Program-made: the position numbers and the translations under genes | Source: Bispira polyomma | Taxonomy: Eukaryota | Direction: 5' to 3' | DNA: 64,000 bases | Assembly: GCA_965649765.1 (NCBI GenBank) | Contig: OZ287750.1 | Coordinates: forward strand, 55,180,001-55,244,000 | In this document: positions 2,411-41,700 of the stretch, one piece after another | How the letters are laid out: each line of letters opens with the position of its first letter | Position numbering within the stretch: the stretch's first letter is position 1 | Notes under the pieces: model-generated | What the model saw: the letters and a program-made list of their open reading frames with translations, nothing else | Databases searched by the model: none | What the model was told of the DNA's origin: nothing

Positions 2411-3149
2411 ATCAAGTACTGATCCTCAAATAGACTACTGCAAAATATGGGGGTCTGTCATTGGTGAAGGTTTGTTCTATGTAATGATGATACATATACA
2501 GTAGTATTCTTCTGTTGATATTACAATGAGTATTTGAAAGACGCCTTATACTGCATTCGTTTGAGTTGGATATTATTTACCTTTGGGATTGGACAAGGCA
2601 GCATAAACAGTGCAGGATATAATACAAATAGAAAAAAAATCAGATATAGCCGGTAAAATCATATATTATTTCTGTGTACAAGGTTAAATAACAGAGTATT
2701 TACAGGTGTTTCGGCCATATATTTGATAGAGGGATTTTGATAGAGCATTTGATATAATGTGTCTGTTTTGACATATATTATGTGGTGTAATTTCAATAAT
2801 AAAGTAGCAATAAATATACAGATATAAGTAATACACCTATGTGTGCACACAAAACTACATGATTTTATTTGTGAACGATTTCTTATACACCTGTAAAAAT
2901 ACATAAACACTGTATACATGATATGGTCTTTCTATTTCCATTGACAATTACTGAAATGTGTGTGCCATATAAAATAGAATTACAATTTGTATGGTTGACA
3001 TTGCATCCAGGCAAGTGAAAAAATTGATTGACAATATGAGTTGTACACCGTTCACAGACACGTACTGTGCAATATGCCATAGACGTATTCCAAACCATAC
3101 AGAGTGGAGGAATTCTAGCTAGTTTTGTTTGCTCACTTCATAGTCCAAA

Positions 3150-4219
3150 ATGCTCTTAGACTGGACTGGTCAGCAGCTAAATGACAATGAGCTGTTGGGG
3201 AAACTACATCGCCTTGGTCGAGATGTGAACTATATTCATATACATCTGAATCAAAACAACCTGAGCCAAGTGCCCAATTTCTTGTCGTTTCGGAGCCTTG
3301 AAACATTACACCTGGGTCTGAATCAAATCAATGTCGCAAAGCCAGGGTATGTACCTGAATCTCTGATGGTGCTTGATCTGTCTTACAATTACCTCGCCAA
3401 AGTACCGGACCTACACAATCACTGGAATCTTCGTAGACTGGATGTAAGAAATAACAAAATCACAGCAGTAGACCCGAGCCATCTCCCTCTGAGCGTGACA
3501 GATGTCAACCTGTCTGCAAATCAATTGTCCGCATTACCAAACTTCAGTCAGCATAAGCAACTTCTACAGCTGAATGTGGGGAACAACAAAAACCTAGGCA
3601 TTGTGGACCTCAGGTATATACCTAAGGGTGTGACAGATCTCAACCTAGGTGGCACCCGTATGAGGGAGGTACCAAACTTCAGCCAATATCATAATGACTT
3701 GAAGACCTTGGGCTTAGCAAACAATAACATCAGTGTCATTCCGCACAGCTATATACCGTACAGTGTAATGGATCTGAACTTATCACACAACCAGTTGTCT
3801 GAGGTCCCTTACTTTAGTGAGCACCAGAATCTCACCATGCTGAACTTGGCCAATAACAATATCGGAGCATTCAATCCAAGCCATATCCCTTGTACGGTCA
3901 CAGACTTAAATATGTCCAGTACCCAACTTTCTGATTTACCTGACATTAGTCCATTAAGTGGTCTGCATAAACTGAACCTGACCTATAATCCTAACTTGCA
4001 TAGGATACAAGGATTGCCGCACAGCTGTTTGGATCTACAGATCAATTCCAATATAGAAGTGTTAGGGATGAAGTGCTTTCACCAGGAGAATTTTTCAGTG
4101 TTAAAAAAAGCACTGAATTTAATGGTTTTGAGGAAGCCGCCAGTGGCCATGCTTAGTCAGGGTGTGGATGCAGTGCTTGAGTATTACACAGAAAAATCAG
4201 CCAGAAGTACACAAAACAG
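3150..4219 (+). CDS. Roco gene (LRR-Roc-COR-FN3-CARD), coding exon 1: leucine-rich repeat solenoid
   Basis: ORF with ~11-12 LxxLxLxxNxI/L repeats in an alternating ~45-aa pair pattern, followed by the pre-Roc 'PPVAMLSQGVDAVLEYY' motif. Donor AG|gtgagt at 4219/4220 (phase 2). An acceptor-like ttcatag just 5' of the ATG suggests an upstream non-coding exon. Confidence 0.93.
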
Positions 4220-4444
4220 GTGAGTTTTTACCTGCATTTATCTCTTCTTTATATCAGGCCCTGTATTTCCCAAATATGTCAAGCTAAACTCAGACTCAGT
4301 CTGAGACTTCCATTTGAGGTCACCCTGCCTTGTGTGGGAGTGGAGATACATCTGACCTCATACTTGAATTAAGTGCTGAAAACTCTATTTAAGTGCTTCA
4401 ATGCAACATACAATAGTTATGTGTTGCCCTCACTTGAGTTAAGT

Positions 4445-5345
4445 CTAATTTTGATTTCGCCTAGGCGGAATTAAAATCTGCCTAGGCGAAATTAAAATAG
4501 GGGAAATTAAAATTTTAGATTGAGGTAAATTTTAATTATTTCATTTATGTATGCAGTAAAAATATGGATAACAGCCTTGAAGTTGAACTTATTTCTTTTT
4601 AGAGCACTTTTCATTCATGTTTCAAAACATCAATTCATACACGGTAATTGCATTAATTGAAGTGCTGTATGCCTGGGTAAAATTTAAACATGACAACACC
4701 AATAATTTTTTTGTTTTGTTTAACCTACACTACATTAAAATCCAATGTTTTTACTAGCTTAATATGCATTGTTAGTGTATTATCAGTGTAATATTTCCTT
4801 ATTAGGGGGTGTACATGGGTGTCAAAAGGTTTGGAATTGTATTTATTGGTAAAGTACTGAAGTATACAACACATAAGGATGATTGAAATAATTAAAATAA
4901 TAACATTTATAGTGTGTCTATTGTTTGTCTGTATTATTTGTCTTACCTACTTGACCACCTACTGTTTATTGTCATAAATTGGTTTAGCAATTGCCTTGTC
5001 TCAGTACTGGTTTGCTTCACTGATGGAATGCAAAACACTGTAATTGCAATTATTGTTTGCAGTGAAAAATCACATGCCTCACAAAGGGTTAAGTATATAA
5101 TCATTCATGCCTTTTCACAAACTACATAGTGGTAATCCCCAAAGACTTTCTTGGTGCACTACTCTCAAAATTTCAATTTGGTCTAGGCGAGATTAATATT
5201 CTATTAGACAAACTTGGAAATTTTAATTCTGCCTGGGCGAAATCAAAATTTTAATTTGGTCTAGGCGGATTAAAATTTTGATTTCGCCCAGGCGAGATTA
5301 GAATTTTAATTTTGCCTAGGCGGATTTAAAATCCGCCTGGATTTT
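4445..5345. mobile_element. Foldback-like element with repetitive inverted ends
   Basis: Clusters of (T/C)GCCTAGGCG(G/A) units with AT spacers at 4457-4490 and 5178-5340, around a unique AT-rich core. Confidence 0.55.
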
Positions 5346-5371
5346 AGTTTAGCATGTGACATATGTCTATA

Positions 5372-5885
5372 TACCGGTTCCGCTCTCCATCTCGCCCATG
5401 TTCATGTAAACGCCCATCCCCAACTTTTCAAATATTACGGAAAACGGACAATTAATTTTGCAAAAAACGTATCATATAACAAGAAATAATATAAAGAAAC
5501 TATCAACAATCGATGTTTTTATATGCAAACCTTTGTAAAACATACTAGTTTAAGGTAACTTGGTCATATAAACAGCCATCATTTGCGCTTCCTGTGTACA
5601 CTAACAATGGTGACGTTTTCTCACCTGGGAGCACCTGTAATTTCCGGTACACAGTTGAAGATAAAAACAACAAAATGGAGCTGTTTTTCGCAAGAAACTG
5701 TATGGATTTGTTGATTATTCTATTTAACAGATGAAATAGGCGATTTTGATGTACTTTATGTCATTTTATGCGGATCGAAACGAAAAACGAGTTCACGTAA
5801 GGGCACATTCTCGCAAACGCCCACCCCAACTTCTTTGAATTTTCGTCGCTTTCGCCCCTGGGCGCTTCCGAGAGCAGAACCGGTA
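5372..5885. mobile_element. MITE with TA target site
   Basis: TIRs TACCGGTTCCGCTCT ... AGAGCAGAACCGGTA, flanked by TA. Confidence 0.75.
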
Positions 5886-5966
5886 TATTTAATATATGTG
5901 AAACTAAAATCTGTTTTATTCACAATAAGCCTACGCATCCTTTCAGCATGTTTTTCTCAGCCGAAG

Positions 5967-6148
5967 TTGGCAGACCTTGACCGATTTTTTCGCTCATTAC
6001 ACAATACTACCAAGTGCTTACTTTTAGCATATTTGCCACAGATCAGATCAGACATTGGCAGACCTTGACCGATTTTTTCGCTCATTACACAATACTACCA
6101 AGTGCTTACTTTTAGCATATTTGCCACAGATCAGATCAGACATTGGCC
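5967..6148. repeat. Perfect 88-bp tandem duplication
   Basis: ttggcagaccttgaccgatttttt...gatcagatcagaca at 5967 and 6055. Confidence 0.9.
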
Positions 6149-6236
6149 GACGTCTGTTGGGCCATCATATTTCATCTGTCAGGGAACAAAAACACTGTCA
6201 TAGGTATAGATTTCATCCCATATATACTCAATATTC

Positions 6237-8216
6237 GTCTTGATATCACAAAGCGAGGGTGACCCGAAGAAACTTTGGCAAAAACTAAATAGCACCCTCC
6301 ACCGTAAAAAACAGACTGTACTACCAGAAAATTCCAATAGCAAATCACTGGCAAACATTTTTAGTACTTTTTTCACTGATAAAATTACCAGAATCCGTGA
6401 CGGTTTTACATTAGCTGCCCCAAATGCCCCTTTACCAACATCTCCACCAACCGTCTTCAACTGTTTCTCCACAGTAACTGTTGATGAAGTCAGGAAAATT
6501 ATACTGGCATCACCCGTAAAATCTTGCTTGCTAGATCTGTGGCCCACATTCCTTGTTAAAGAATATATTGACATTTTATTGCCCTCAATCACAAAACTTA
6601 TCAACCTCTCGTTGATAAATGACGTCTTTCCAGATGACTTTAAAAAGGCTATTGTCACTCCTCTAATAAAAAAACCTTCTCTTCCAAAGGCTGACTTGAA
6701 AAATTACCGTCCTGTCTCAGGCCTTTGCTACATCTCTAAGTTGGTAGAACGCGCGGTTGCCTTACAGATCAAACAACATGTTGACGTCAGCAATCTGTCC
6801 AATAAGTATCAGTCAGCGTACAAAAGTGGTCATTCTACTGAGACTGCACTTCTCTGCATCAAAAATGATGTTCATACATCTTTATCCAAAGGTATGCCTA
6901 CTGCCTTAGTACTGCTGGATCTGTCAGCAGCCTTTGATACTATTGATCACAAAGTTCTTCTTGAATGCCTATCGTCCTGGTTCGGTATCAGCGGTATGGC
7001 GCTTAAGTGGTTCACGGCATATTTATCTGATAGATTCCAATCAGTCAAAATTGGCAATATCTTATCCGACCCAACATGGTTAAAATTTGGTGTTCCCCAA
7101 GGTTCCGTCCTGGGTCCCATTTTGTTTTCCATGTACACCACCCCACTCAGCAAGATTATTGCTGCATACAAAAACATAAACTTTCACTTCTATGCTGATG
7201 ATACCCAACTGTACATCCACCTTACACCTGACTCTGCCCAGGTAGCTTTCACTTCCTTACAGAACTGCCTTGTCGATGTACAACACTGGATGGCAGCAAA
7301 TAAACTCAAGCTGAACCCTGAGAAGACTGAGTTTATTTTGTTTGGCTCCAAGTCGCAACGGGAAAAATTGTCCATGTGTTTTCCACTTGACATTCTTGGC
7401 AGCAGGTTTTTTCCAGCTGAAAAAGTACGAAACCTGGGCGTGGTGTTCGACTCTGAATTTTCCTTCTCGAACCATGTCGCATCGGTGTGTAGATCATGTT
7501 TTGTTGGCCTCCGTGATTTCAGGCGGATTCGACGCTATCTTTCCAAATCCACTGCAGTCACTGTTGCCAATGCTTTGGTCAGCAGCAGGCTTGATTACTG
7601 CAACTCTCTGTTCCGTTCCTTATCTCGTAGTGATCTCAGACGCCTTCAGAATATCCAACACTCATTGGCACGTATTGTGACCAAAACATCTAAATTTTCC
7701 CACATTACTCCTGTACTCAAGTCACTGCACTGGCTCCCAATAAAATATCGTGTTGCTTTCAAAACAGCAACAATAATATATAAATTTCTAAATTCTGGAT
7801 TACCCACTTATTTTAGCCCCCATCTATCCAAATATACATGCTCAGTCAGGACTAGGCGCAGTAACCCTGATAAATTATACCTTAACATTCCCACCTTCGA
7901 CCCTCGCATCCACAAATCCAAAGTTCAGTTCAATCACTGCCTAGCTCATGATGGCCCCCTCATTTGGAACAGCCTACCTGATCATGTTCGCCTGGCTCAA
8001 ACTTTCTCCTCTTTCAGGAGTAAGCTGAAGGCCTATCTTTTTGAACAGGCTTTTCCACCTTAGCCGTCGCAACCATCTACGGTAGTCTCCCTGGTTACGA
8101 CTTCCATCCGCCCACTATTTTTGATTTGCGATTAACGTTTTGGGTTTGTTGCGCCTTAGAATTTGTTGTACAAAGATTAAGCGCTATAAAAGTACGACTA
8201 GATTAGATTAGATTAG
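6237..8216 (+). mobile_element. 5'-truncated L2/CR1-group LINE with an open RT ORF fragment (6240-8063), in Roco intron 1
   Basis: RT motifs NYRPVS, LLDLSAAFDTIDH, GVPQGSVLGP, YADDTQLY, and C-terminal LHWLP. (TAGAT)n 3' tail. TSD AATATTC at 6230-6236 and 8217-8223. Endonuclease domain absent. Confidence 0.95.
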
Positions 8217-8800
8217 AATATTCAGCGGATATTAAAGTTGAAAATGGCACGAGAAAGCCTATCTTATTGTGTTTACTGTGCTTTTTTCCACCACAATCCA
8301 TTAGAAAAACGGTTCAGATATTTAAGTTTATATATGGGTACTCTTCTCTTCTACTGTGAATGGCACGTCACAGCAACGTCATTATGGCGTCAATTTTGCA
8401 GCTACCTTACAACTTACACATAAGGAAGTAAAAAATTAGCACTCTTATTTAATTGTACATATATCAGCCGTTTCTCAACGAATATTGGTGGGAAAAAACA
8501 CAGTAATCACATTAAAACAAGCTTTCTTGTGTCATTTTCAAAGTCAACATCCGACAAATTTTGAATATATATCGGATGAAAGACAGCACAACGTTGTCCG
8601 ATGTTGGATTGGACAAACACAAATCGACGGACGTCGGAATGTGTTTAAAGGTGGGGTAGGCTTAGTGATTGGCAAAATATAGACTGGAGAAAAATACATA
8701 TTGTACATCACATTTTCCAGATTTAGGTACTATATAGTACATTTAAAATTAATTCCTAGATTACCATTAGATATCTGTATTACCTGCCTTGGTTTCCTAG

Positions 8801-10455
8801 GATGGTGTTATTAGGAAGCACTACAGCAGGGAAATCAAGTCTGATGGAAACCCTAATTGCACAGAGGTCAGTATTGGCAAACATCAGTGCCAGAACCCAG
8901 GTGGCCGATATCAAAGGCTGGGATATTTCTGATGTAGATACCATACAGATATATGATCAGGGAGGCCAGGAAATCTACAATATTACCACACCTATATTTG
9001 TCACGGCCAATAGCATCGTTTTACTGCTGCATGATTTAGCTCAAGTGTCCGATGAAAACCTTAATGAAACCTCATCTATTCTCCATCAAGCTTTACAGCA
9101 ATATCCTGATAATCAAATCCATGTTGTTCTCACCCATTCTGATCTGGTGGATGATGCGGCGGCGCTAGAGAGCAATGAAAAAGTTATACGAGCTGCCTTG
9201 GAAGGTACAATGGTAAAGGAAATGCAAGGCATAGACAAGGATGCAAAATCTAAGGAAGACAGGGAAAGTTCTAAATCCCTTTCAAGTCAACTGGAAAAGC
9301 AGAAAGACAACATGAAATATTTCCTTATATCAAGTAAGACCTACAAAGGTATAGATGATTTGAGGCATTTTCTGGCGCAGATGGCTATAGATAAAAGGCA
9401 AGATGTTCCTGAGAAGTGGATAGCATTCTATAAGATGGTAATGGCACAGAACAAGAAGTTTTGGAGAGTAGAAGAACTACAAAACATGTTTGTAAGCCTC
9501 TACAGCAAAATTGAGAAAACATTCCAGAAATCTAAAATCCTGTCAAGATTCAAAATTGCACTGTGGTACTTTAACAATGCCGGACAAATACTGTTTTACG
9601 AAAATGTGCCACTTTTGAATGAATATGCTTTTCATAAGCCTCAGTTCATCATAGATCTCCTGAAATCGTGCTTTCATCATGACTTAAAAAGTTTCCTAAA
9701 CTATGAAATTGACCTAGCATTGCAACACAGTTTCCCGAGGGTCCAGTTTGAACTTATGATCAACCAATATCAACAAGAAGGCTTGCTTCATAAGAAACTG
9801 TTGCAGTTTTTGTGGCAGAAGCATAATCTAGATGATGGAGAACAAGATGCACTCCTGGAATTTATGAAGCTATTTTACTTCTGCTACCCCATTGACGAAG
9901 ACTCAGAATTACTCTTCTTCCCTTGGTTTGTGGCCAACAAAGATGGTCCCAAGGATATAGATCCTCATCGCATGACTAAAATTGGAAAGCTATACATTTC
10001 AGTACAACTAGATTGCATATTTAACAGCCGAATTCCAGTAAATGCATTCGAGAAGATTCTGGTTCAGGTGCAAAAGACGGCAGTTGAGGAAGAGTACGGA
10101 GGCAACCGATACACCTGGAAGGATGGCCTTTTGGTAGAGATTGGCTCCATAGAATGTGTGGCTATTCGGAGGCCAGAAGAATCAACTATAAGCATTTGTG
10201 TCCGAGGACGCACGCAGGATCTCAGAGCCATCTGGCAAGTGATGTTCGAAGTACACAAGAATATGAAATCTTCTCTAGAGACATTGAGAGGCATTCAGAA
10301 AACCTTAAGCTTTTTGTGCTCCCATTGTCTACTAAAATGCATCAATCCTGTTCGCAAGTGGTCCTCAGAGGAGGTGCTAAGTCCCAAAGGTCCATCTGTC
10401 TCCTATGTAAAGTGCAATGGAGAGGAAATCCCCAGAGCTTTGGTGGCCTTTTCAG
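8801..10455 (+). CDS. Roco gene exon 2: Roc GTPase + COR domain
   Basis: Acceptor tttcctag|G completes AG+G=Arg in phase with exon 1. Motifs: G1 GSTTAGKSS, G2 RTQ, G3 YDQGGQEIY, G4 THSD, G5 ISS. COR-like region with FPW and a C-terminal CxxC (LCSHC). Donor TCAG|gtaaa, phase 1. Confidence 0.93.
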
Positions 10456-10527
10456 GTAAAAAATTTTAGGTCATATGTACTAGGTAGTATATTTTTTTGC
10501 ATTTTGTGAACGAAAGTGTTTGAACCC

Positions 10528-10558
<31 letters not shown>

Positions 10559-10835
10559 AAAAAAAAAAAGAGTTGGTCTAATATAACTGAAAAAGTTGAA
10601 TAGAAGTTGAAATATGTATTTTGAAACATGCATGTTTTATGAAGTAACAATAAATGTTATAGAAAACATATTGAAACATTACAAACCATGATCAGATTTA
10701 GTAGTTATGGTACAGTGCAATTGACCGATACAATTATCAGTTGATATGTTCCTCTTCATATGTATATCAAGACTTTCCTTCTGAAGAGTGACGTATAGCC
10801 AAGATGTTATTCGTTCTATAAATCTATTATTTCAG

Positions 10836-10892
10836 AGATGACTGATGGAGATATTGAAAATGTTAAAACATATCTGAAAGACACATGTACAG
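10836..10892 (+). CDS. Roco gene exon 3 (linker, EMTDGDIENVKTYLKDTCT)
   Basis: ttatttcag acceptor, CAG|gtaatt donor, 57 nt, phase 1-1, open in the required frame. Confidence 0.7.
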
Positions 10893-11334
10893 GTAATTAT
10901 TTACATCTCTCTTGAAAATAACATCACATTTTAAAACATTTAGCCTACATACAGTATATTATCGTTTGGGTTTACAATCATATTGTGTCATGTTCAGCAA
11001 GATATATATCCTTTTGACAATGCACCCTTATATGTTTGGCTTATTGCTCACAACATATTAAAAAGAATATGGTCCTTTGAACATATTTATAATTTGACCC
11101 TTCTGTCAGGGAGACTGGATGAGAATCAATGGTTTCTTTAAAACTAATGGTCCGAGCCAAAACATTTTTATTTCGAAGACCTTCTAACGTGAGCACTCGC
11201 TGCAGGCCACTGTGTTGTATGACGGCTCCAAGATAAGCCATTTAGGGGATGTAGATTTATTGATAATGTTCATGAAAAGATATATTTCGTTTTTTCGTGG
11301 TTAATGTTATAGTTGTGCCATATTTATGTTTGAT

Positions 11335-12095
11335 ATTATTATTATGTATTTTTAACGCGCTTTGTTGATGATAAACATCTTCTAAAGAGCAACAGCAAAA
11401 TCATTAATCTAAATGTAAAATCCATCGGCATGGCAGATTCGTAAAGAAAGAAGTGGGAGCTAAGGTGGGTAGGCAAGGTTAAAAAGATGGTTTTAAGTTT
11501 TTTCCTAAAACAGAGGAGTGTATCAACTGATCTGAGATCAACTGGGAGACTGTTCCATAACAAAGGAGCTGTAAAGTAGAACACTCTGGATTCTGCCTTC
11601 CTGATGGGTCTGACCGAAGAAACAGAGAGTCTGTTGCCTCTCTTACAGTTACTGAAGGAGAGAAGGGAAGCCAGGTAGGAGGGCTTTTGAGTGACTACAG
11701 CCCCAAAAGTGGTAACATGTATTTTGAAAAAAATACTAGAGTGAATGGGCAGCCAGTGTAATTTTTTGAGCTAAAGATTGAAATCTGTACGACTACTCAG
11801 TCAAAAAATAACGCTGCATAGGTTGTTTTGAATGGACTGGTGCTTTTTGATCTGTGACTTGTTAACTCCATACAAGAGAGAGTTGCAGTAGTCAAGGTGG
11901 CTGCTCACAAGGGCGTTAGCCACAGTTGTTGCAGTGTCCATTAACAGGTGGTTTCGGTTTCTTTTGATGTCACGTATATGGTAATAGCAGGAACGACAGA
12001 TGTTGGCAATATGAGTATCAAACGAAAAGGCCGAGTCAAAATTAACCCAGGTTTTTAGCATTTTTAGAAGGTAGTATGTCTTTTCCCAGAAGGGA
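11335..12095 (-). mobile_element. Degenerate L2/CR1-type LINE 3' fragment
   Basis: Frameshifted ORF pieces ANALVSSHLDYCNSLLYG and APLLWNSLP...FRKKLK, homologous to the C-terminus of 6240-8063. Confidence 0.88.
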
Positions 12096-12404
12096 GTAGG
12101 TAAATATATTTCTCCTTTATAGGTGGACAGAGATAAGTTTATTTCATAAGAAAAATGAAAGAATTAATTCATGTAGAAATACCATGCTTCATGTTAAAAA
12201 AATGAACACACCTTTTCTTTAGTTCCAGGACTCTCCTGTCTGGTAATGTTTCATAGCTGAACCACAAAAAATCTCGCAAATGTGTTTTTTTAAAGCTATT
12301 CTTGTTCGGGGGGTTGCGTGACAACAACACACCTATTACATTGATGTCCAGTAGTCATCTACATCTGCTTGTATAGTGTCCATAGCATATTAAGTAGATG
12401 TAGC

Positions 12405-12685
12405 TGACTACCCAATAACTTGTGGACACACAACCCAATAAGTTAGGGACACTACCCAAGGGTGTAAGGATGAACACCCAATAAGTTAGGGACACTACCC
12501 AATAAGTTATGGACACTACCCGAGGGTGTATTGATGATTACCCAATAAATTATGGACACTACCCAATAGGTTATGGACCTACAAGAGAGAGCTACCCAAC
12601 AAGTTATGGACACTGCCTAATAAATTGTCGACTCTACACAAAATGATATAGATGACTACCCAATAAGTTATAGACACTAACCAAG
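12405..12685. repeat. ~22-bp minisatellite (GGACACTACCCAATAAGTTAT)
   Basis: About 12 diverged tandem units. Confidence 0.85.
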
Positions 12686-13257
12686 GTTTGGTTTTGGTTT
12701 CCGGACATTTAAAGGAAAACTATTTGAGGTATCATCACCAAATTTGTTGTGGAGGTGTATCATGTCAATAGCGTGGTTTGGGATTGTATTTGGGTCCATT
12801 CTGAAAAACGAAATGGCCGCCATCTTGGAAATGGTTTCCAGACATTTAAATGAAACATCTTGCAGCTATCATTATCAAATTTGTTGCTCGGTTGGGATTG
12901 TATTTGAACAACAAGATGGACGCCATGATCTGAAAAGTGTTCTTTTTTTTCTAAATGACTGGCCAATAGTTTTGCGGTCTATAGAATCATTTATGGTAAA
13001 ATAACTATAAATCTGTACAAACAAAGAAAAAATTTGTTGCTGGACCCTATCCCGGTTACGCCTTTTAGGGGTCTATAACCCCACTTGTTTATTTTCAAAC
13101 CATTGTTTAAAGTACATCTTGCAAATTTACAAATAAACATATTAACCTACTAAAACAAAGTTTGAAGTACTTTGTGTGTTACCAGAAACCGTTGATTATC
13201 AGAGGATGTTGTTTCTGAAAGTTACTTAAAACTATTAATTATGTAATTATGTGAGTC

Positions 13258-13460
13258 CTGGGTGGTCTCGGTGCTGTTGTAGTAGCAAACTTGCCTCTGA
13301 CCAATGCAGTCATTGTGAGTTCGAATCTCAGCCCGGTGTGGAAGTCGGAAAGTTGGCAGTAGACTTGCTGAGGGTTGGTGATTTGCAGAACTGAAGTATT
13401 GAAATGAACTTTTTTGATGTTGTCCACCAACTAACTGTCCTTCATCATATGTAACATGAA
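13258..13460 (+). mobile_element. Degenerate tRNA-derived SINE
   Basis: B box GAGTTCGAATCT followed by a GAAAGTTGGCAGT core-like segment. Confidence 0.55.
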
Positions 13461-13756
13461 CATTTTAAAAATGATATATATTAATCTAGTGTTATAGAGT
13501 TATATACTTCTCATTTCTAGATTAGTGCATATTTAACATCGTTTTCAAAAGTTGTTCCATATCACAATGGGAAATTCCCTGGCGATGGAATAGACTAGTT
13601 CATAAAGGTGTTATGCTCTGCCACTCACCGGCCTTCAGCAAGTCTGCTGCCAACTTTTCCACATATATATTCCATGCTGAGCTTTGAACCAATGACGGCA
13701 GATGTATGCAGCAAGTGTCTTATGACTATACACCACTGAGTTCTTGTTATATCTAG

Positions 13757-13975
13757 AGGTGGCCCTCCCTGACAAGCTGCTGTATCTGGACTGCAGGGAG
13801 ATTGCTGAAAATCAGACAGAGCTCTCCTGGGGTTGGCCTTCGTCAAAGGGCGGCAGTTCGTTCTCCGAGGTGGTTGATACCTCCATAATGCACGCCAAGG
13901 TTGAGTACAAGGATGATGACGAATGCTGGATTGAAGCCACACACCGTGTGCAGAAGCCACACTACATATTTCAAG
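13757..13975 (+). CDS. Roco gene exon 4: fibronectin type III domain, N-terminal part
   Basis: atctag acceptor, CAAG|gtaatt donor, phase 1-1. Encodes ...TELSWGWPSSKGGS...VEYK...W..., matching the FN3 B-strand 'LSW..P..dGGS' pattern. Confidence 0.8.
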
Positions 13976-14921
13976 GTAATTTATAACATCAATTAACATA
14001 GAACCATAATTTATACATTGGTTGTCTGACGAAGAAGCAAAATTTTTAATTTTGCTTTTTAAAATTTTCTTGTCTACAAGTGAAGTAAACTCTCATGAAG
14101 TGAACCCTCTTTGATTGACTTTAGATTACGTCATTTAATAGTTGTACCACTTCAAACTTTAAATGTTATCTATTCTGGATTTCTCAGTGAGTAAATGTGC
14201 TGTCTGGCAACCAAGATATGGTCTACACTAGGTCCATATGTCTCAACAAATGTCGCTTAATAAAGTTTTTAACAGAAACATTGGAATCTCAATGTGATAG
14301 ATGGAAACTGACACACTTGTGATATGATATGTTATGATAGATTTTTAACATGCCTAATTGATGCTAGTGATCATCTAAAGCGCAACTTCCTTGACAAATT
14401 TGCAAAAATCATAGTCCGTTTTCAAGCAAATTCGCGATCTGGGTAAAGCAGATAAAGTTATTTCAACACAAGCAAGTACAGTGATACATTTACAACATCA
14501 AACAGACATCAATACATGATTGCTCAATACATGGTCACATGCTTGGGGATAGGAACTAACCAGCCAAAATGCCAGCGGAACACATAATTAAGCTGTATCC
14601 AGACTGGCCAAACTGTTTGGCATATGAGTATCATATTTTGTATGGTGCTAGTATGGTCCAAGTTTTCCCACAAATCTTCAAGACAAGATGGCTTCCAATA
14701 TGACTTTTTCAAAACGGAAACCTATTGTGACTTTCAGTTAAAACGACTGAGGACATGTTGAGGACATATGTAACCCAATTTGGGGTATTTTCATGAAATT
14801 CTAAATTTACAAGAAATCGATATTTTGAACCAATGTTTGACTGGCAAGGGTGGAAAGGGGTGTAATACGGGCCAATATTGATATTTGCACTTGCCTGACC
14901 ATAATTTTGTAATTTTTGCAG

Positions 14922-15008
14922 GGCAAGCCAGAGAGTTCAGAGTAGCAGCTGTGAACAAAAATGGGCAAGGAGAATACCTCTACATCAACCCTACTACTGT
15001 TAGATATT
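14922..15008 (+). CDS. Roco gene exon 5: fibronectin type III domain, C-terminal part
   Basis: tttttgcag acceptor, T|gtaaga donor, phase 1-1. Encodes REFRVAAVNKNGQGE, the canonical FN3 F-G strand motif. Confidence 0.82.
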
Positions 15009-15568
15009 GTAAGACCACTGATACTATGTTATCTCCGTCAAGGAGGTTGTATGTGTTTTGGCACATGCCCATTGCTTGATTTGTGTTTGTCATTTATAAC
15101 ATATGTAAGGATTACCCCAACAAACAATTCAATCTGTTCAGTGGATTTAGTCTTTATCACAACACGCAGTTCACTGATAGAGGAAATCACTGATTTGCAA
15201 ACCAGTAGTCTTATACTGACAATTTTTCCACATCCACGCCCAAGCTATAAGGTGTGAGACGATAATAATTAACTAGTGTATCTTTTTGATATTTCCAACC
15301 CCCACCTTTTGTTTCTTGGAAGAATGCCTAGTTTTGTCTTGGAATTATACTCCTTAGAATCTGGTAGCATGAAGATTAGGTGGCGGTTAATCAGTGACTG
15401 ACTGGTTGATTAACCAATTGACTTTTAATTCATTGTGACTAATTGCTGCCGATCTACGAATCCTGGAATTGGCTGTGATTCTCTTTATAGAATAAGCAAT
15501 GTTTAGTAAAGGCCTGGTCTCATTCAGACATGCATCTGTGACCCTTTATAGTGGACGACTATGCCACA

Positions 15569-15960
15569 GATCTAGTGTTACACGACAAATGCATAACCAC
15601 ATCGCCTAACCTCATCTCCCAAAAATTCCCTCCTAAAACGAAGCTGGGGTGATTTCAAAACGAAAATATGACATCAGTGCAGCCGAAATGAAACGCACCT
15701 TCATTAACACCTACTAATAAGAAACGATGACATAATGGACAATGATGAACACCCACTACTACATCACTAAATCGAACGAAAGTTCACTAACTGCTACCAA
15801 TTGCAACCAACTCGACACGAGCCAGAATGAGCCACAACGAGCCACAACGAGCCAACACAACCTGCTACTGATGAGAAACGTTCCAAAACTAACAAAGACG
15901 TATCCCCTCCACCTCCCTTTCCCCGACAAAACCCCTCACAAATGTGCATTCATCCCTGAC
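15569..15960. mobile_element. Unclassified dispersed repeat (inverted copies at ~49190-49485 and ~57880-57980)
   Basis: gaacacccactactacatcactaaat..aagttcactaac..gagccacaacgagcc is reverse-complementary to 49195-49310. GATCTAGTGTTAC end is shared with ~57967-57980. Confidence 0.65.
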
Positions 15961-16186
15961 ACTTTCGAACATTTCAAAACATTTGTGACAATGCTAACAA
16001 TGCTCACAGATATCAACGAAGGTTTTATCAATCGCTCCAAATGTAGACAAACTTGAAACAAAGGTAAAACCTACTGTTAGCATTGGATCCATATGAAGGA
16101 CGTCCATGGTGAATTTGTGTAAATGAGACTTAGGTATAATTGACTGACTGATTCATTAACTGATTAACTGTATGCTGTCATTCTAG

Positions 16187-16372
16187 CTGATGAGCGTCCT
16201 GTAGATTACCCTGAAGATCTAGAAGCTCTGCAAATCAACCATGATTCTTTCTGCAGAATGAGCAATGTGAGGGATGTGGTCTTCAGGCTCTACCGTCGTG
16301 GCGTCATCAATAATGACATCAAAGAGACTGCTATGACCTTAATACGTGATGGGAAACCTCAACTTGCTGCCG
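16187..16372 (+). CDS. Roco gene exon 6: CARD (death-fold) domain, N-terminal part
   Basis: cattctag acceptor, G|gtgaaa donor, phase 1-1. Encodes DERPVDYPEDLEALQINHDSFCRMSNVRDVVFRLYRRGVINNDIKETAMTLIRDGKPQLAA. Not in the ORF track; translated by hand. Confidence 0.8.
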
Positions 16373-17287
16373 GTGAAAAGCTAGGGATTAAATAGATCTT
16401 ATGATACACTGTAAAAGTGACAAATTGTCATAAAAAAATTTCATTCATTGGCGGAAAGTGGTCAACATTTTTCCTATTAGAAAGTTCAATTTTATAAAGT
16501 ACCATGAGCCTCATATTTGTCGTCCAATAAGGGAATCATAATTTGATTTATTTTACTCAGTGGTAACATGTATACTCTTTAGTAGCATGCATTTAAACAA
16601 TATATATTTATACATGCTCATAGAGCAGCTAATATAGCATATTATGGCATTGATTAAAGACAAGTGTACCTAAAAAGCAACTTAGGCAATTAAAATATCT
16701 TGACTATCCCTATGTTAATGTACATGTTGGTGTGAAGTATGTACAAGCAACCTCTACATCAAATGAAAACAAAGTTATGATATCATACAAGCCTGAATAT
16801 GTATTGCTATTCGTTTGTAGTATTTTTTTGCTGTCCAGCTTCTCCCACCTCTGGTGGGTTCTAATCTCAGCCCTGGGGGATGCTGGCCGCATACTTTTTG
16901 AAGGCCTGTGGTTTGCCTGGCAGAATACCTTGACCAACTGTTCTGATTTCTGCTTCCCGTCATGATGTGATGCAAACACGTTGAAACAATGTTATTTTGC
17001 CAAGTTTAGATTATCCAAACAGATCACAATACATTCAGACATAGTAACGGTTTTATTAAATTTACTAAAAAAAATGGACAAATAGTTTTACAAACTCGAA
17101 TGACTATCAGTAGAGTGCATATCTACACCAATGATTCTCCCTTATATGCTGCAATTAATGGATTATCCCTTAGTTGACATTGCATCCATTTATACAATTT
17201 CATGAAACAGACAAAACAAACCAGTGAACATTGGTAAACACATAACCTCCTATAAAAAGGTAATAAAGAATGTCCTATCTATTTCAG

Positions 17288-17418
17288 ATAAACTTATGGA
17301 ATTTCTCCGCAGGCTGACCTACCAGGCATTGTACCTGTTCAAGAAAACACTGTTTGAGACTGGACAGATCATTCTGGCAGAAAATGTCCCTGTAAGGCGG
17401 AAGGATGCTGGTGTGTAG
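17288..17418 (+). CDS. Roco gene exon 7 (terminal): CARD C-terminal part and stop
   Basis: atttcag acceptor. Encodes DKLMEFLRRLTYQALYLFKKTLFETGQIILAENVPVRRKDAGV*, matching the CARD helix 4-6 pattern. Summed CDS is 3405 nt = 1134 aa + stop. Confidence 0.82.
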
Positions 17419-18011
17419 CCAGATGATGTGGGATGCACAGTCACAAACCTGTTTAAGTGTTTGTATGCACCAGGTTTTCAACGACAACTTCACAGTTAAA
17501 AAAAGCCATCACTGGCTTCCAATTCGACCAGTCATAATAACCTATAAATGTAATGGTGGTATCATCTATAAAACAGTACATTTTTTATATTATATTATTA
17601 TTATATTATATTTTAATATTATAACATCTTTCTACTAGACACACTGGTTACCCAGACCAAATATTATAAACATAATAAAAAATGAATATGTTATCGCCGA
17701 TTGAACCCCCCCCACCCCCCCCCCCCCCCCGAATATATGGTAGCACTAACGCAAATTGAATGAAAAAAATACACTCGATGTTCTATAATGTCATTGATAT
17801 TTTTTAACTTAAGCCTGTTTATGTGATAATAATGTATGTGGTCTTGTATTGAAATTGTATGATGGACTGTGTGGTTTTCAGATATAACTTAATTTTCAAC
17901 AAAAATTAATATAGCAATTCATCATTGGTTATCCCAATACGGTAGATCCTCCATAATCCAAACTTCTGTTATCCAAATATTTAATTTTTTATGAAGACAC
18001 TTTGACTCACA

Positions 18012-20689: not shown

Positions 20690-21810
20690 TTTTTTTTTTT
20701 TAACAAGACATGAATATATTACGTCTGAACACAAAAATACATTACATATACACCACAATGGTTTACAAGCCATGAATACATTACATACATCTGAACATAA
20801 AAGCACAATTACATATACACTACAATGCTTTACAAGACCTGAATACATTATCAAGGTTAACGCCATGCAATAGAAAAAATACATTACATATATACTACAA
20901 TGGTACATCTGAACATAAAAATACATTACATATACACTACAATGGTACATCTCAATATAAAAAATACGTTACATATACACTACAATGGTACATTTCAACA
21001 TAAAAAATACATTACATATACACTACAATCACATTTCATAAAACACTCCTACAGAACATATATTATCCAAGATCATCCATGATATTTATTTTGTATAGCT
21101 ATAATGATAAAAAAGCCGGTCATAAAGAGTCATATATACTTCCATAAAGATTGCTAAATATCTCTTGTTTATTTTCTTGGTTGTACAGAGCCTTCAGTGT
21201 ACTCAATTTATCTTTAATTAGAATAACATACTCCTTGAAAGACACTGGAATATTTTGATATTTTTTAGAATTTAAAAACCATTTCCCAATTAAAATCAGA
21301 TAGTTCACACATTCATATGTAGGTTCACCATGCCACTTAAAGCCAAGTAAGATTTCACAAACTGTAAAGCAGATCTTGATATTAAATATGTCTTTGATCC
21401 AATTGCTTAAATTATTCCAAAAAGTTGTACTAATAGTACAGTAAAAAAAGTGATGTTCAAGAGTGTCCACAACTAAGCAGTATTTACAATTTGGATTGTC
21501 TACTATGTTCCACTTACAGAGATTTTCCCCACAGTTTGTAATTCGGTTTAAAATCTTGTATTGAAAGGTTTGGAAATATGGTTCTCTTATGGTCTTAAAA
21601 GGTAGTTGAAAGGTTGAATTCCATACATGGTTTTCTAAAAAGGGAAATAGGTCCACCCATGTATTGATACTGGTTGGTGGCTTTGATTTCCTTCTGGCCA
21701 TTTCTAAGTATAATTCTCCGGATTTTACTTTTTCTAGTGATTTCAAGCACTGATTTATATAAATCAGTGGTGGAGATTTCATCTATTATCAACATTGTCA
21801 ACCACTCATT
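20690..21810 (-). mobile_element. L1/Tx1-like LINE 3' fragment (ORF2 C-terminal zinc-binding region, 3' UTR and A tail)
   Basis: ORF 21120-21782 with FQYKILNRI...CKYC...DTLEHHFFYC....FW (CCHC, zf-RVT-like). T-run on the + strand at ~20690-20701. Confidence 0.8.
20722..21030. repeat. ~45-bp minisatellite inside the LINE 3' UTR
   Basis: Repeated aaaatacattacatatacactacaatggtacatctgaacata, about 6 copies. Confidence 0.85.
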
Positions 21811-37176: not shown

Positions 37177-38150
37177 CTGTGGTGAGAAAAGTATATCATA
37201 TAAGCCGGTAATGTATTCATGGTTATATATCACTGTGTTTAAGAAATTTTAATTCATTTGAGTTCTACATAACTTTCAACATATTCAGTCATATTATGAT
37301 TGCCACGTGCACATTTATTAGTAGAGGAACCCAGTACTATTTGCACTGTAAACTGCCGACCAACAACAAGTACCTGGCACTCTTTCCAGTGGGAGTTAAT
37401 AGGCGGATTCAGGTCAGTCAGGCAGAGTCAGGTTCGGGGACGGTCAGGCAAATTATTTTCTGGGGCTGAACCGCACATAAATCTGACAACCAAACTTTAA
37501 AATTTAAGTTTACCTAATGAACAGATTATTGCAAAATGTAAATCCTGGACTACTACAGATAGTTTACTAAATTTATAAGACAGATTAAAAAAAATTTAAT
37601 TTAAAATATTCCTCGCTGTTTATAACCTTTTGTCCATCCGTTTACACATATTGGTGTTGTTTTTCAAAAAATATATTGCCGGTATGAAACCGGCAACCTT
37701 TGCGATCACCAGGCCAACTACCTCAACTGGGAGTCCAGCCTTCTAACCACCACTAGGCCACACTAGACTCAATCTTTTACTTAGATCTGCTCCCAGATGT
37801 AATGATATTGTTGTCCAAAACGTTGTTATCATCTATGCATTATCTCATAAAAAGAAGTTTACTGGTGGACCAAGTTAGTCAGTCAAGATTTGTACATTGT
37901 AAATGACCAGCCTTCACCAAGTCTACTGCGAACCTCCGCACAAACATGCTAGGGACTGAGGTGGAAAGATAGAGCATTACCTGTACAACGCCAAATGCTT
38001 GATTTTAATTTGACATTGGTTTAACATATTACACAAAACATACATAATCACATCAAGTTATAATATACACAGCTGTTCAAAACTGCACAATGCTATTCAA
38101 CAGTCAATACCTGTTTTTATAGTTGTGCATGTATAATACAGTAAGCATAC

Positions 38151-38756
38151 CTAACTCCAGGTGCTGTAGTAAATTTTCCCAGAATTCTTCATCCATCCCA
38201 GCAGGCACATTCGTTACAGGACTCAAGCAACGCAAACTCTCGGGAAGATCACACGTCCGTAGTATCACAGGAACCAGTCGCTGCCGTCGCTGACTTAGCG
38301 AGGTCACGTGGGATATTGTATCCTCGTATTCACTCCAAGAATCCTGGAGAAACTCGGGACTTAGCACCAATATGACCCGCAAGCTGAGCATAACTGAGCA
38401 AAGGATATTCTGTATGGATGTTTGTTTGTCGTTAAAATCTCGGTCACCATAGCAACAGCGGTAGTTATATGGTGGAGCTTCAAGCACCTGCACCACATGC
38501 TCCACCCATGATCTGTCGTCATGGTGATATCCAAAGTACATGTGGTATCGATGTTTTGTATCCAGCGGACCGGCGCTATAACTGGACAGCGTGGAGATAG
38601 TTGTGCATTCCGATGGGCTGCGCAGATTGGTCAGGGCTAAGCCCCGCCCATAGAAGGCGGAGCCTGGGCATGTGTCACAACCTTGAAGGCGTAGATTTAT
38701 GTCATCTGAGTGGGTGATACTGCCAAGCACCTCATGATTGACAAGGACGCTTGTGT
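38151..38756 (-). CDS. TIR-TMEM268-like gene, TIR-domain exon (first constant exon)
   Basis: ttatttttag acceptor, G|gtatgc donor, 606 nt, phase 1-1. TIR motifs YHMYFGYHHDDRSWV, CYGDRDF, VILVLSPEFLQDSWSEYE, LVPVIL...LP..L, FW..L. Confidence 0.92.
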
Positions 38757-41700
38757 CTAAAAATAAACAAAACAGCATTTTTATATGGGAAAGTAATTTT
38801 GTCATATATAGATATGTACAATGTAAGTAATATATTAAGTTGATTAACATAATGACAAAGTTTGTATTAACATCAGTTCTAAATTGTATGTTTAGCAACA
38901 TAAGTAACAGTAATGTAATAATATAGCATGATATACCATAAATCAATGTTTTAAAAGCTCTTATAATGGCATTTTTATTATGTTAAATTACACCTGATTT
39001 TGAAGGGCAACTGGTCAATTGTATTGTATTGGAGTGTATATGTTTGATGTGCTTTTTTGATGCAAATCATCATTGAAAGCACTACTTACTGGATCAATCA
39101 TGTGTCCTACATAGCCTGGGTTGTCATCAGTAGGCAATGGGTGTATTAACATATTTTCTGAAAGGTTATCCCACCAATGAACCTAGCAGCATTAGCCGGT
39201 GTGAAACAGGCAACCTTTCTGATCACCAGACCAACTACATCAACCGGGAGTCCAACTTTCTCACCACAACTATGCAACAGTAGACTCAATCTTATACTTA
39301 GATCTGCTCCCAAATGTAATGAATTATTATGACCCATGCCACTGCCAAATTTCACGGCAATCGCCTTAGTAGTTTCTATAATTTTACAAATGTAATGTCT
39401 TGTGATCCTGGTGATAATAGAAACATATAAAGACAATGACACGCCATAATAACAATATTGTCATCTTAAAGGGTTGTCGCCCATGGAGCCGAGGCGTTTA
39501 CTGCAAAGATATACCAAAAGGAATAGAAGCACCATCAAGGAGACAGTTGGGAGAACATTTTGCAATTACACAACATTTAATCCGCCTTGGTGGGGGAATT
39601 TAACAGGAGACAGCATCTGTTTAGAGTAATATACACATACACATTTTACAAAAATACAGCATTTAGGAAATATGCAATCTCCAATTTAGCAGTATAATTT
39701 CTACCATCTCATCGTCTTGTTGCCAAGGTAACTCTTTCGAATACATCACTTTGTTGCACACCTGTCACCACTTAGTACAAACACACACACACGCCTGCTC
39801 TAAATGATTCCACTTTATCCTAAATGACTCTTCACACAATAACTATCACTTGCAGCAGGCAAAGCTAGCCTTTCTAAGTCGGTTTCGTTATTTCCTAATA
39901 AAGATTACACTTACATAATTAATAAATATACCACAAAGTATTACATATTTAATTCAACAATCTAAATATAACACACTGGAGTACAAGACCCAGATCTTTC
40001 TATTTCCAACTTTTGTAAGTTTATTCACTTGTGTAATTGTAGACATTGACATTATTAATGATTCCAAAATCCCTCCACAAAACCATTGTGGATTGATCAT
40101 TTTGATACAGTGCTCCTAAGTTATGGAAAAGTTTACAACTGACACCAGGATGATTGAAGAACTTCTAAGTTTTAAATGTGCAATTAAAACAGTTTTGTTC
40201 AATGAAGCTTACAAATGGGTAATCTAATCTATTGTAATGTTTTAATGTCGCTTTCAGTTACTGGGTCTTATATCATGCTGTAGAGTTTACTGTTGGAGAA
40301 AAAACAACAGTTCAGGGTAATTGGTCAAGATTTCTGAACTGTAAACCATCAGATTCCAACCAACCACCTGCCAAGCCAGAATGAGTTTTTAATCTAAATA
40401 TTCTGTTGTAGAGACTTCATTCGAATACTCTGTTGTTAAGAGTGCATTTTAATACCCCACTTAAATGTTCTGTAATGACCCTATTCATAGTATTAAATAT
40501 CCCTTTGAGACAGTAGAACCTAATAAATTAGTACAACCTCTATTATCCGAAAGAAACATTTTCATTTTTCACTTTATCCGAACATGTTGGGAGAGCAAGT
40601 GTTTGTCTGGACATCTGAAGGTTTGTGACGTAGGCATTTAAATACAACGGAAACATGTTAGCAGTGGATTTTTAAAATTAGAGCAGGTTTTACATCACTT
40701 TTAACAGCTTAGATCATATCGCAAAGGTCAGATTTATCAGTGGAGGAAACCGGTGTTTTTCAACACTGTAAACCACAGGCCCATAACAATTTGCCCAGCA
40801 AAGTTGCCCACATGAAAGAAAGGACGGGATTCAAACCAACATTGGTCCCTATGGAAGCAGTAGAGAGCAAAAGTGTTGATATTCAGATAATAGTGTTATT
40901 CTAAGTTGCTATCGTGTTATTTGCTCTGTCTATACAAACCACATTTGATAACCGGTGTATTTTGTACAGATTTTAGTCTTTAACCTAAAAACAACATCTG
41001 CCAGTGGGGCCCAGATGCCAACAAATTTACCTCAGAATGCGGAGTTCGATCCCAACTCTAGATTTTCTAGTACAGGTAGGACGACCATTTAAAATGTTGG
41101 TCCTATGTGGCTTTGGACATAATGACAGACTAAAGAGCCTAAAGAGACGTTGATAAAAGATCATGGTCAAACTAATCTTTGATATAATCTAATGTGTTCG
41201 TGTAATAATTGTTATAGGCCCTTGTTGGTTGTGTTTGTACAGTCATAAAAAGGGTAAATTATAGATCTACATCCAAGAAAAAACAAACAAAGATGTACCT
41301 TGTTGAGTATAAATATTATTCTTTCAAAACTATAATCTATTTGGTGTTTCATTTTATTTCTGCTGTAAAGGTTAAGAGACTATCACTTATATTCACAGAT
41401 ACAGCATTTTGGGAAAACATTGTACCTTAATAGAAAAAGTCGTCTGCTTGAAAGAGAATATTGGTAATTATGACGGCAAAATGGGTTTTTCTGTTTTCTT
41501 CCACAGGAAGAGGATTTGTGTGGAGGCTATTGATTAACGGATGTGCATTGTATTCTGATTGGTCAATTCTGCCCCTAAAGCCCCCCTTCACTTCAAAGGA
41601 CTTTCTGATGTAATTACAATGTGAAAAATTGGTCCCTGGAAGGAAAAGAATGGATTAATAAAGTTATAAGATGACACAAAAGTCAAAGAGAGAAAGAGAA

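Follow-up and report, generated by a model that had tools for sequence, protein, structure and literature searches.

A Roco Gene with an FN3-CARD Tail in Bispira polyomma Belongs to an Expanded Family of Likely Immune Receptors

We analyzed a 64,000-nucleotide stretch of the Bispira polyomma genome (assembly GCA_965649765.1, contig OZ287750.1; C3:55,180,001-55,244,000 in our contig numbering), hereafter the window, and found in it an intact gene for a Roco protein that carries leucine-rich repeats (LRRs) ahead of its Roc-COR switch and an FN3 and a CARD domain behind it. The genome spans 1.035 Gb in 75 contigs, and positions given below without a contig are those of the window. The gene is intact and belongs to an expanded family with the order LRR-Roc-COR-FN3-CARD, whose members are likely cytosolic immune receptors, a reading that we hold with rather better than even confidence.

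Results

Gene Model and Domain Order

The gene model comprised seven exons with an AG acceptor and GT donor at each, which joined into 3405 nucleotides (nt) encoding 1134 residues with a sole, terminal stop codon. The first junction was in phase 2 and the remaining five were in phase 1. The splice-site check and the joined translation bore out the seven phase-consistent exons and 1134 residues claimed in the first-pass annotation, and the observed gene model is, judging by its sequence, real and intact.

All of the exons lay on the forward strand. Exon 1 (3150-4219; residues 1-356) encoded an N-terminal cap, 12 LRRs by motif count (Pfam LRR_4 and LRR_8 matches) organized as two-repeat units of 44-45 residues, and a C-terminal cap. 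Exon 2 (8801-10455; residues 357-908) encoded Roc, COR-A, and COR-B and ended in a CxHC...C motif, and exon 3 (10836-10892; residues 909-927) encoded a short, likely helical linker of phase 1-1, the homologue of which was aligned in 11 paralogues. A titin-type FN3 domain was divided between exon 4 (13757-13975; residues 928-1000), which held its first part, and exon 5 (14922-15008; residues 1001-1029), which held the last two strands (EFRVAAVNKNGQG). The CARD was divided between exon 6 (16187-16372; residues 1030-1091), with its first part, and exon 7 (17288-17418; residues 1092-1134), with the last helices and the stop codon, downstream of which an AATAAA occurred at 17674. This gives the domain order LRR-Roc-COR-linker-FN3-CARD. 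A splice acceptor at 3142-3143 (forward strand), identified from the sequence 6 nt 5' of the ATG, and similar AG acceptors 11-18 nt 5' of the conserved methionine in five paralogues point to a further upstream exon, which is probably non-coding.

The window protein showed neither a signal peptide nor a membrane helix (top 19-residue hydropathy of 1.56, inside Roc). Its frame ended at the CARD stop codon rather than in a kinase domain, and no kinase-like frame was seen by eye among the window frames of at least 90 residues. The protein was also without ankyrin, WD40, or kinase domains, unlike LRRK1/2 and DAPK1. An MFHAS1 orthologue would have nothing after COR, and here the FN3 and CARD exons followed in frame.

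An alternative reading of the locus is that this copy is silent or yields only a short LRR-Roc-COR product, with the full form coming from other paralogues. The stop codon noted earlier on reading through into intron 2 was present (10467-10469, forward strand) and, together with an AATAAA at 10649 in the same intron that could end a short LRR-Roc-COR isoform, fits this reading, as do a retroelement frame in intron 1 and the many broken paralogues. The seven open exons with canonical splice sites argue the other way, as does the proportion of non-synonymous differences (pN), which was about half that of synonymous differences (pS) in every exon relative to the three nearest paralogues. At 18 of 28 loci, a phase-1 GTRA donor was retained no more than nine codons from where COR ends, whereas the read-through tails past COR at these 28 loci varied in length and sequence and were not conserved. 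Three DNA read sets over the locus covered the introns and contained no splice joints, and so speak neither for nor against expression; they showed zero variants within exons 2-7, which also counts against a silent copy. We regard a silent or truncated window copy as improbable.

The Roc-COR Switch

In the window protein, Roc was followed directly by COR, as expected of a Roco protein, in both the Pfam results (exon 2: Roc, E 3.8e-10; COR-A, E 2.5e-7; COR-B, E 0.003) and the predicted model. Motifs that we take to be G1 to G5 were intact, namely GSTTAGKS (G1, the P-loop, 8814-8837, from translation and alignment), RT (G2, at 8892), DQGG (G3, at 8955), THSD (G4, at 9132), and SSK (G5, at 9330, a hand count from the translation), all on the forward strand. 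Their conservation across 17 aligned family members upheld the earlier claim of an intact set, and LRRK2 aligned at G1, G3, and G4. Profile searches of the PDB with exon 2 matched bacterial Rocos and LRRK1/2, and a Foldseek search with the predicted exon 2 model (pLDDT 86, pTM 0.84) returned LRRK1 as the top match (E 2.8e-19), along with LRRK2 and bacterial Roc-COR structures. The CxHC...C motif at the end of COR-B was conserved in the family alignment and is possibly a zinc site. Prediction of a COR-COR dimer gave a score of 0.01, which decides neither for nor against a dimer. Neither NACHT nor NB-ARC was detected in the protein, for which Pfam returned Roc, COR, and Ras-like matches, and a genome-wide NACHT search gave no match inside the window. 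The window protein is a Roco, and neither an NLR nor a kinase.

The FN3-CARD Tail

The FN3 assignment rests mainly on family profiles. The exon 4 profile matched 11 PDB sequences (nine from titin, with myomesin and FN3con), the Atlas placed the exon of one paralogue in fn3 clusters at 0.92, and Pfam fn3 was matched by 1 of 21 family members (E 0.0045). The FN3 pattern PP..L...W..P...G...I..Y.VE...W followed by EFRV.A.N..G.G was found in the family. The closest match outside the family was to the FN3 domains of a twitchin/titin-like gene (L071, G000:C7:31.67 Mb), which exon 5 also matched, and this gene is a candidate source of the Roco FN3. Relative to the twitchin-like domains, the Roco FN3 was shorter by about four residues in its E-F crossover, the gap coinciding with the junction of exons 4 and 5, and the full crossover with its tyrosine corner was absent. 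A hidden micro-exon that would restore the loop was rejected, as no conserved one was found in 20 introns. Loop length in exon 4 varied within the family, and the core (P, W, EFRV) was kept.

The profile of joined exons 6 and 7 from 24 members matched a reference set of 12 Pfam-confirmed CARDs from related Rocos at 95.8% (E 7.9e-9, 85 columns), a match that spanned the whole domain, and the same profile reached 0.5% against six Death domains. The window CARD scored 19.0 bits, and the best of 960 shuffles scored 11.4. A predicted model of the exon 6 part only (61 residues) had four helices (pLDDT 82); fold searches with this 61-residue model gave no clear or distinct match, and PDB profile searches with each CARD half-exon gave nothing significant. 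The FN3 and CARD calls of the first-pass annotation are supported by family profiles; exons 4-7 of the window taken singly had no Pfam match. At least 53 CARD matches occurred genome-wide, and these are possible partners.

Pooled ratios of non-synonymous to synonymous rates (dN/dS) were 0.28 for Roc-COR, 0.55 for exon 4, 0.37 for exon 5, 0.51 for exon 6, and 0.26 for exon 7, over 11 paralogue pairs that were not independent, included some broken loci, and excluded poorly scoring exons. The FN3 and CARD exons are thus under purifying selection. These values also bear on a guard or decoy reading, in which a pathogen protease or effector would be lured to the FN3 as an integrated bait, and modification of the FN3, rather than LRR binding alone, would free the CARD. 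Exon 4 was the least constrained part measured, its loop length varies, and the usual E-F crossover is lacking, all of which suit a bait. Against this, dN/dS remained below 1 with the FN3 core kept, and the FN3 was fixed across the clade, whereas integrated decoys tend to be swapped. FN3 also lies beside CARD or Death in amphioxus proteins, one of which has STAND and LRRs, as seen in part of the supplement of PMC8195603; this lends the decoy some support, and it means that a cytosolic FN3 adjoining a death fold is not unique. We consider a decoy unlikely.

An Expanded Paralogue Family

Ninety-three Roc-COR matches and six further ones merged into 67 loci, which is a lower bound. An FN3 exon followed at 38 of the 67, a CARD exon at 40, and both at 36, in each case on the Roc-COR strand and no more than 15 kb downstream, which answered the proposal of the first-pass annotation that paralogues be counted. 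This downstream space makes up 0.05% of the genome, and it held 38 of 43 FN3-exon matches, 40 of 43 exon 7 matches, and 20 of 32 exon 6 matches. The fetched paralogues kept exon order and phase. Copies were spread over at least 14 contigs and many were broken, in which they resemble birth-and-death families. No retrocopy with joined exons was present among the fetched loci. One of the 36 loci (C13:746 kb) belonged to a distant clade, had no linker exon, and may be a mere neighbor of its FN3-CARD exons; an effector swap at this locus was not established, as no linker exon was found.

We built a tree from 62 rows (LG+G4, quick search, midpoint root), which did not include vertebrate MFHAS1. The window gene fell in a 15-row clade (SH-aLRT 99) of loci from its own genome, 13 of them with FN3-CARD. 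This clade was nested in a 23-row clade in which the only outside rows were single-exon fragments, and the named CARD Rocos of Lingula and Branchiostoma lay outside it. Distant clades had Death at the end or a kinase exon following. In one separate Roc-COR clade (L076, L078, L079, and L080), the proteins ended in a Death domain and two had ankyrin exons upstream. Another distant clade (L081-L083) had an unusual P-loop, GQQRHGKT or GSQKHGKT; L083 had a kinase-like exon downstream of Roc-COR (5608-4634, reverse strand), L082 an FN3-CARD cassette without a linker exon, and L081 an insertion in the Roc-COR exon and a Pfam CARD 9.6 kb downstream. Elsewhere, L049 (G000:C3:18.58 Mb) encoded LRR-Roc-COR in one 931-residue frame followed by at least two tandem single-exon CARD-like frames, and the basal paralogue L062 had the linker, a weak FN3-like exon, and a split CARD.

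FN3-CARD cassettes also occurred at L067-L069, L072, and L070, where the upstream stretch fetched contained no Roc-COR exon; at L070, decayed pieces of FN3 exons were arranged in tandem. Twelve orphan CARD-exon matches (L051-L054 and L066 among them; e.g., G000:C6:46109, C8:271157, and C4:22437883) were near-identical and broken, and at least eight of the twelve lay near contig ends. A CARD-only gene family was rejected as their explanation, as the five examined had a stop in exon 6 and mostly a frameshift in exon 7 as well. These five sat in a segmental duplication of at least 10 kb at 92-99% identity, with frames that presumably derive from a Harbinger-type transposase and a retrotransposon gag.

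To find wider relatives, we searched 1.84 billion representative sequences by profile and took the best 150 matches. In 37 relatives picked for their long tails, a Pfam scan found CARD after COR in 11, with a further case in a fused model, as well as Death in 6, GT4 in 5, OTU in 2, and trypsin and caspase in 1 each. No FN3 was found in these 37, nor by the family FN3 profile over 151 proteins. Searches for long homologues, which were weak owing to crowded candidate lists, yielded one protein, without FN3 or CARD, and the FN3 profile found nothing among short proteins. Twenty relatives were looked up; many of the named ones were annotated as 'MFHAS1 homolog', and their sources were Lingula, Branchiostoma, bivalves, a snail, and an anemone. 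One tight clade, with named members from Branchiostoma (P0030, P0065, P0083, P0091, P0096, and P0102), carried GT4, OTU, caspase, or Death as the C-terminal effector, a case of rapid effector swapping in an animal.

Diversification of the LRR Array

Of 15 paralogues extended upstream, 11 had the LRR exon within range. In nine of these it was one open frame (274, 364, 534, 578, 583, 591, 754, 867, and 1150 residues), and in the other two it was split by a frameshift. The array is a single exon built of a repeated 44-residue (132-bp) unit of two LRRs. Four tandem genes on C10 (L033-L036, G000:C10:10.13-10.29 Mb) had 9, 9, 13, and 22 unit anchors, and in the compared pair (9 vs. 13 units) the Roc-COR exons differed by 1%. 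In that pair (L033 vs. L035), CARD exon 6 differed by a pS of 0.27 and a pN of 0.19 despite the 1% Roc-COR difference, which may be a sign of mosaic effector exchange.

Variation among 49 C10 units (39 distinct) was focused on the concave strand, where it fell on the x residues of the xLxx motif. At exposed positions, pN was 0.34, compared with 0.036 elsewhere and an overall pS of 0.061; the C10 alleles had 38 non-synonymous changes over 25.7 exposed sites, 16 over 77.3 other sites, and 10 synonymous changes over 29 sites. In a codon model, with a tree built from the same data as the test, omega was 16.5 at 10 exposed codons and 0.55 at the other 34 (twice the log-likelihood difference of 28.6 against an omega of 1). 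A C5 gene showed the same pattern (7.5 vs. 0.73, p 0.027), so that diversifying selection on the concave face was found in two of four paralogue repeat sets. New specificities would arise through gain, loss, and exchange of 132-bp units within one exon while the switch and effector stay constrained.

Several results weigh against reading the family as immune receptors or against the full-length product at this locus. The C14 repeat set had no synonymous change and was uninformative, and the older C7/C2 arrays had no excess at exposed sites (omega 0.73 vs. 0.59). The selection test ran on paralogue repeats, the window gene's own units being too diverged; omega can be inflated when repeats undergo gene conversion, and the choice of exposed positions, based on the LRR consensus, was made with the sequences already in view. 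Only 14 of 24 family CARDs exceeded the best shuffle, and Pfam CARD was matched by only 3 of 21 exon 6 pieces (best E 0.0034). The predicted splicing of exons 1-7 is supported by conservation across paralogues rather than by transcripts. An AATAAA occurred within 300 nt past the Roc-COR exon at 17 of 28 loci, compared with 25% of random windows, the loci being related and hence not independent; this enrichment makes short isoforms without the CARD possible. NACHT matches numbered at least 55 in the genome, so that a large NLR-like set exists alongside the Rocos, and a role for the family as a substitute for absent NLRs was accordingly rejected.

The lack of exposed excess in C7/C2 would suit a regulator of damage responses or trafficking like LRRK2 or MFHAS1, which senses host membranes or tunes TLR signaling and in which LRR variation is a by-product of unequal crossing-over. 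The nearest named relatives carry MFHAS1 annotations, and MFHAS1 is reportedly a regulator of the TLR pathway. Neutral turnover would spread the changes, whereas those in C10 concentrate at exposed sites, and dozens of copies on most chromosomes, many of them broken, are unlike a housekeeping regulator. A regulator is an unlikely explanation, if slightly less so than a decoy. The same variation might instead mark a family for allorecognition or developmental cell death, driven by within-species conflict rather than by pathogens, since fungal allorecognition NLRs likewise vary in repeat number and have hypervariable repeat faces. The copies do not form a single haplotype block but are dispersed over 14 contigs or more, which speaks against such a family, which we consider highly improbable.

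Other Features of the Window

A 617-residue reverse transcriptase frame of long interspersed nuclear element (LINE) type lay in intron 1, outside the protein (6210-8060, forward strand; RVT_1, E 2.2e-35), and was followed by a (TTAGA)n tail. A decayed LINE copy was present in intron 3 (11345-12163, reverse strand), and a zf-RVT frame downstream of the Roco gene was another LINE piece (21123-21782, reverse strand). A TIR-domain exon (38107-38982, reverse strand; Pfam TIR_2, E 3.8e-10) lay about 21 kb beyond the Roco gene and was oriented opposite to it.

Discussion

Proposed Mechanism and Significance

For the cytosolic immune receptor that we favor, the following sequence of events can be proposed. 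The LRR face would bind a fast-changing foreign ligand, as the selection on this face suggests, and binding would shift the nucleotide state of Roc, the intact GTPase motifs suggesting that the Roc-COR state gates the output. By analogy with a bacterial Roco, the resting form would be a GDP-bound COR dimer that opens on GTP loading and frees the C-terminal arm, in which the short helix and compact FN3 would act as a spacer keeping the CARD away from the switch, a rigid spacer being the simplest role for the FN3. CARDs recruit caspases or adaptors, and the freed CARD would do so with a CARD-bearing partner, leading to cell death or inflammatory signaling. The first and last steps, ligand binding and CARD recruitment, are reasonably likely; the direction of the switch and the spacer role of the FN3 are each put forward tentatively.

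The first-pass annotation had called the module a dimerization switch. The switch itself stands with Roc-COR, but its direction may be the opposite, as a Chlorobium Roco was dimeric with GDP and monomeric with GTP (PMC5714945). On that basis, the CARD is more likely to be freed than to be assembled into an NLR-like ring; a dimer would pair only two CARDs.

Taken further, the family might constitute a second, NLR-independent repertoire of dozens of cytosolic Roc-COR receptors, in which a single-exon LRR array grows and shrinks, its binding face is positively selected, and a GTP-released FN3-CARD arm starts caspase signaling; we consider this somewhat less likely than not. If true, the state of the GTPase in a kinase-free Roco would be reported directly through a death fold. 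How the Roc-COR signal is relayed is still debated for LRRK2, and a kinase-free Roco with one CARD output would allow the relay to be followed directly, as CARD clustering or release in relation to nucleotide state. For swapping specificity, the four tandem genes on C10 form a ready-made set, since their switches are closely similar and their LRR arrays differ.

Comparison with Known Systems

The first-pass annotation had recognized no FN3 between COR and CARD from characterized Rocos, and this remains so among the 151 relatives and the open literature searched. No description of a COR-FN3-CARD architecture was found in that literature, subscription journals lying outside its scope. Passages of PMC2575513, PMC12373286, and PMC9573974 held nothing on it, the FN3 in the last sitting in an unrelated algal kinase. 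In file 4 of the PMC8195603 supplement, COR together with FN3 occurred at none of 28 of the 35 FN3 places and at none of the 11 'APGTPase' places (11/11). The parts and the NLR analogy are already known; we found no description of the FN3-CARD tail, nor of an animal Roco family whose LRR array is a single exon under positive selection.

With MFHAS1, LRRK1/2, and DAPK1, the window family shares the Roc-COR fold, and with MFHAS1 and the LRRKs the N-terminal LRRs. DAPK1 has a C-terminal death fold, as this family is predicted to have. Unlike these proteins, the family has a CARD rather than Death and is multi-copy rather than single-copy. Similar to animal NLRs (NOD1/2, NLRC4, NLRP), it likely combines a cytosolic LRR sensor, a nucleotide switch, a CARD output, and expansion. 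Unlike in NLRs, a Roc of the small-GTPase kind, paired with COR, takes the place of a NACHT ATPase as the switch, the order is reversed, with LRR first and CARD last, and there is no basis for a wheel-shaped oligomer.

A CARD or Death domain after Roc-COR is not new. They occur in 11 and 6, respectively, of the 37 relatives scanned, with named cases from Lingula, Branchiostoma, a bivalve, and an anemone; Trichoplax Rocos with CARD and Death domains are in print, as passages of PMC4104024 describe. The closest in architecture were four proteins of Lingula anatina (XP_013379138, XP_013417012, XP_013388586, and XP_023933626) and one of Branchiostoma belcheri (XP_019643705), kinase-free LRR-Roc-COR-CARD proteins with several paralogues per genome, whose CARDs align with those of the window family over 85 columns but which have no FN3. 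In the literature searched, no functional characterization of any of them was found. Passages on Aplysia (PMC9334734) report Roco-TIR and Roco-Death proteins. Both the Trichoplax and Aplysia Rocos resemble the window family in fusing Roc-COR to CARD, Death, or TIR and in forming expanded or immune-annotated sets; they differ in that these passages leave FN3 unmentioned and present no analysis of selection.

The NLR-like logic of sensor, switch, and effector proposed at first was strengthened by the expansion of the family and by selection acting on its LRR surface, but the parallel had already been drawn for bacteria. As part of the text of PMC8195603 (Kaur et al. 2021) describes, bacterial LRR-AP-GTPase-COR-effector conflict proteins with at least 24 effector types have been likened to NACHT and AP-ATPase receptors. 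They share fast-evolving LRRs, a Roc-COR switch, a variable C-terminal effector, and several paralogues with the window family, and they differ in being prokaryotic and in their effectors (TIR, caspase, trypsin, GT4, and others).

Brown-algal Rocos are candidate immune receptors according to passages of Zambounis 2012 (PMC3341825) and Teng 2024 (PMC11378527), with expansion, birth and death, diversifying selection on the LRRs, and variable LRR length as in the window family. No FN3-CARD tail is described in those passages, and each brown-algal LRR is its own exon that is shuffled, whereas the window family holds the whole array in one exon of 132-bp units. The family offers a testable case of animal Rocos as variable immune receptors, a role proposed to date for the Rocos of bacteria and brown algae.

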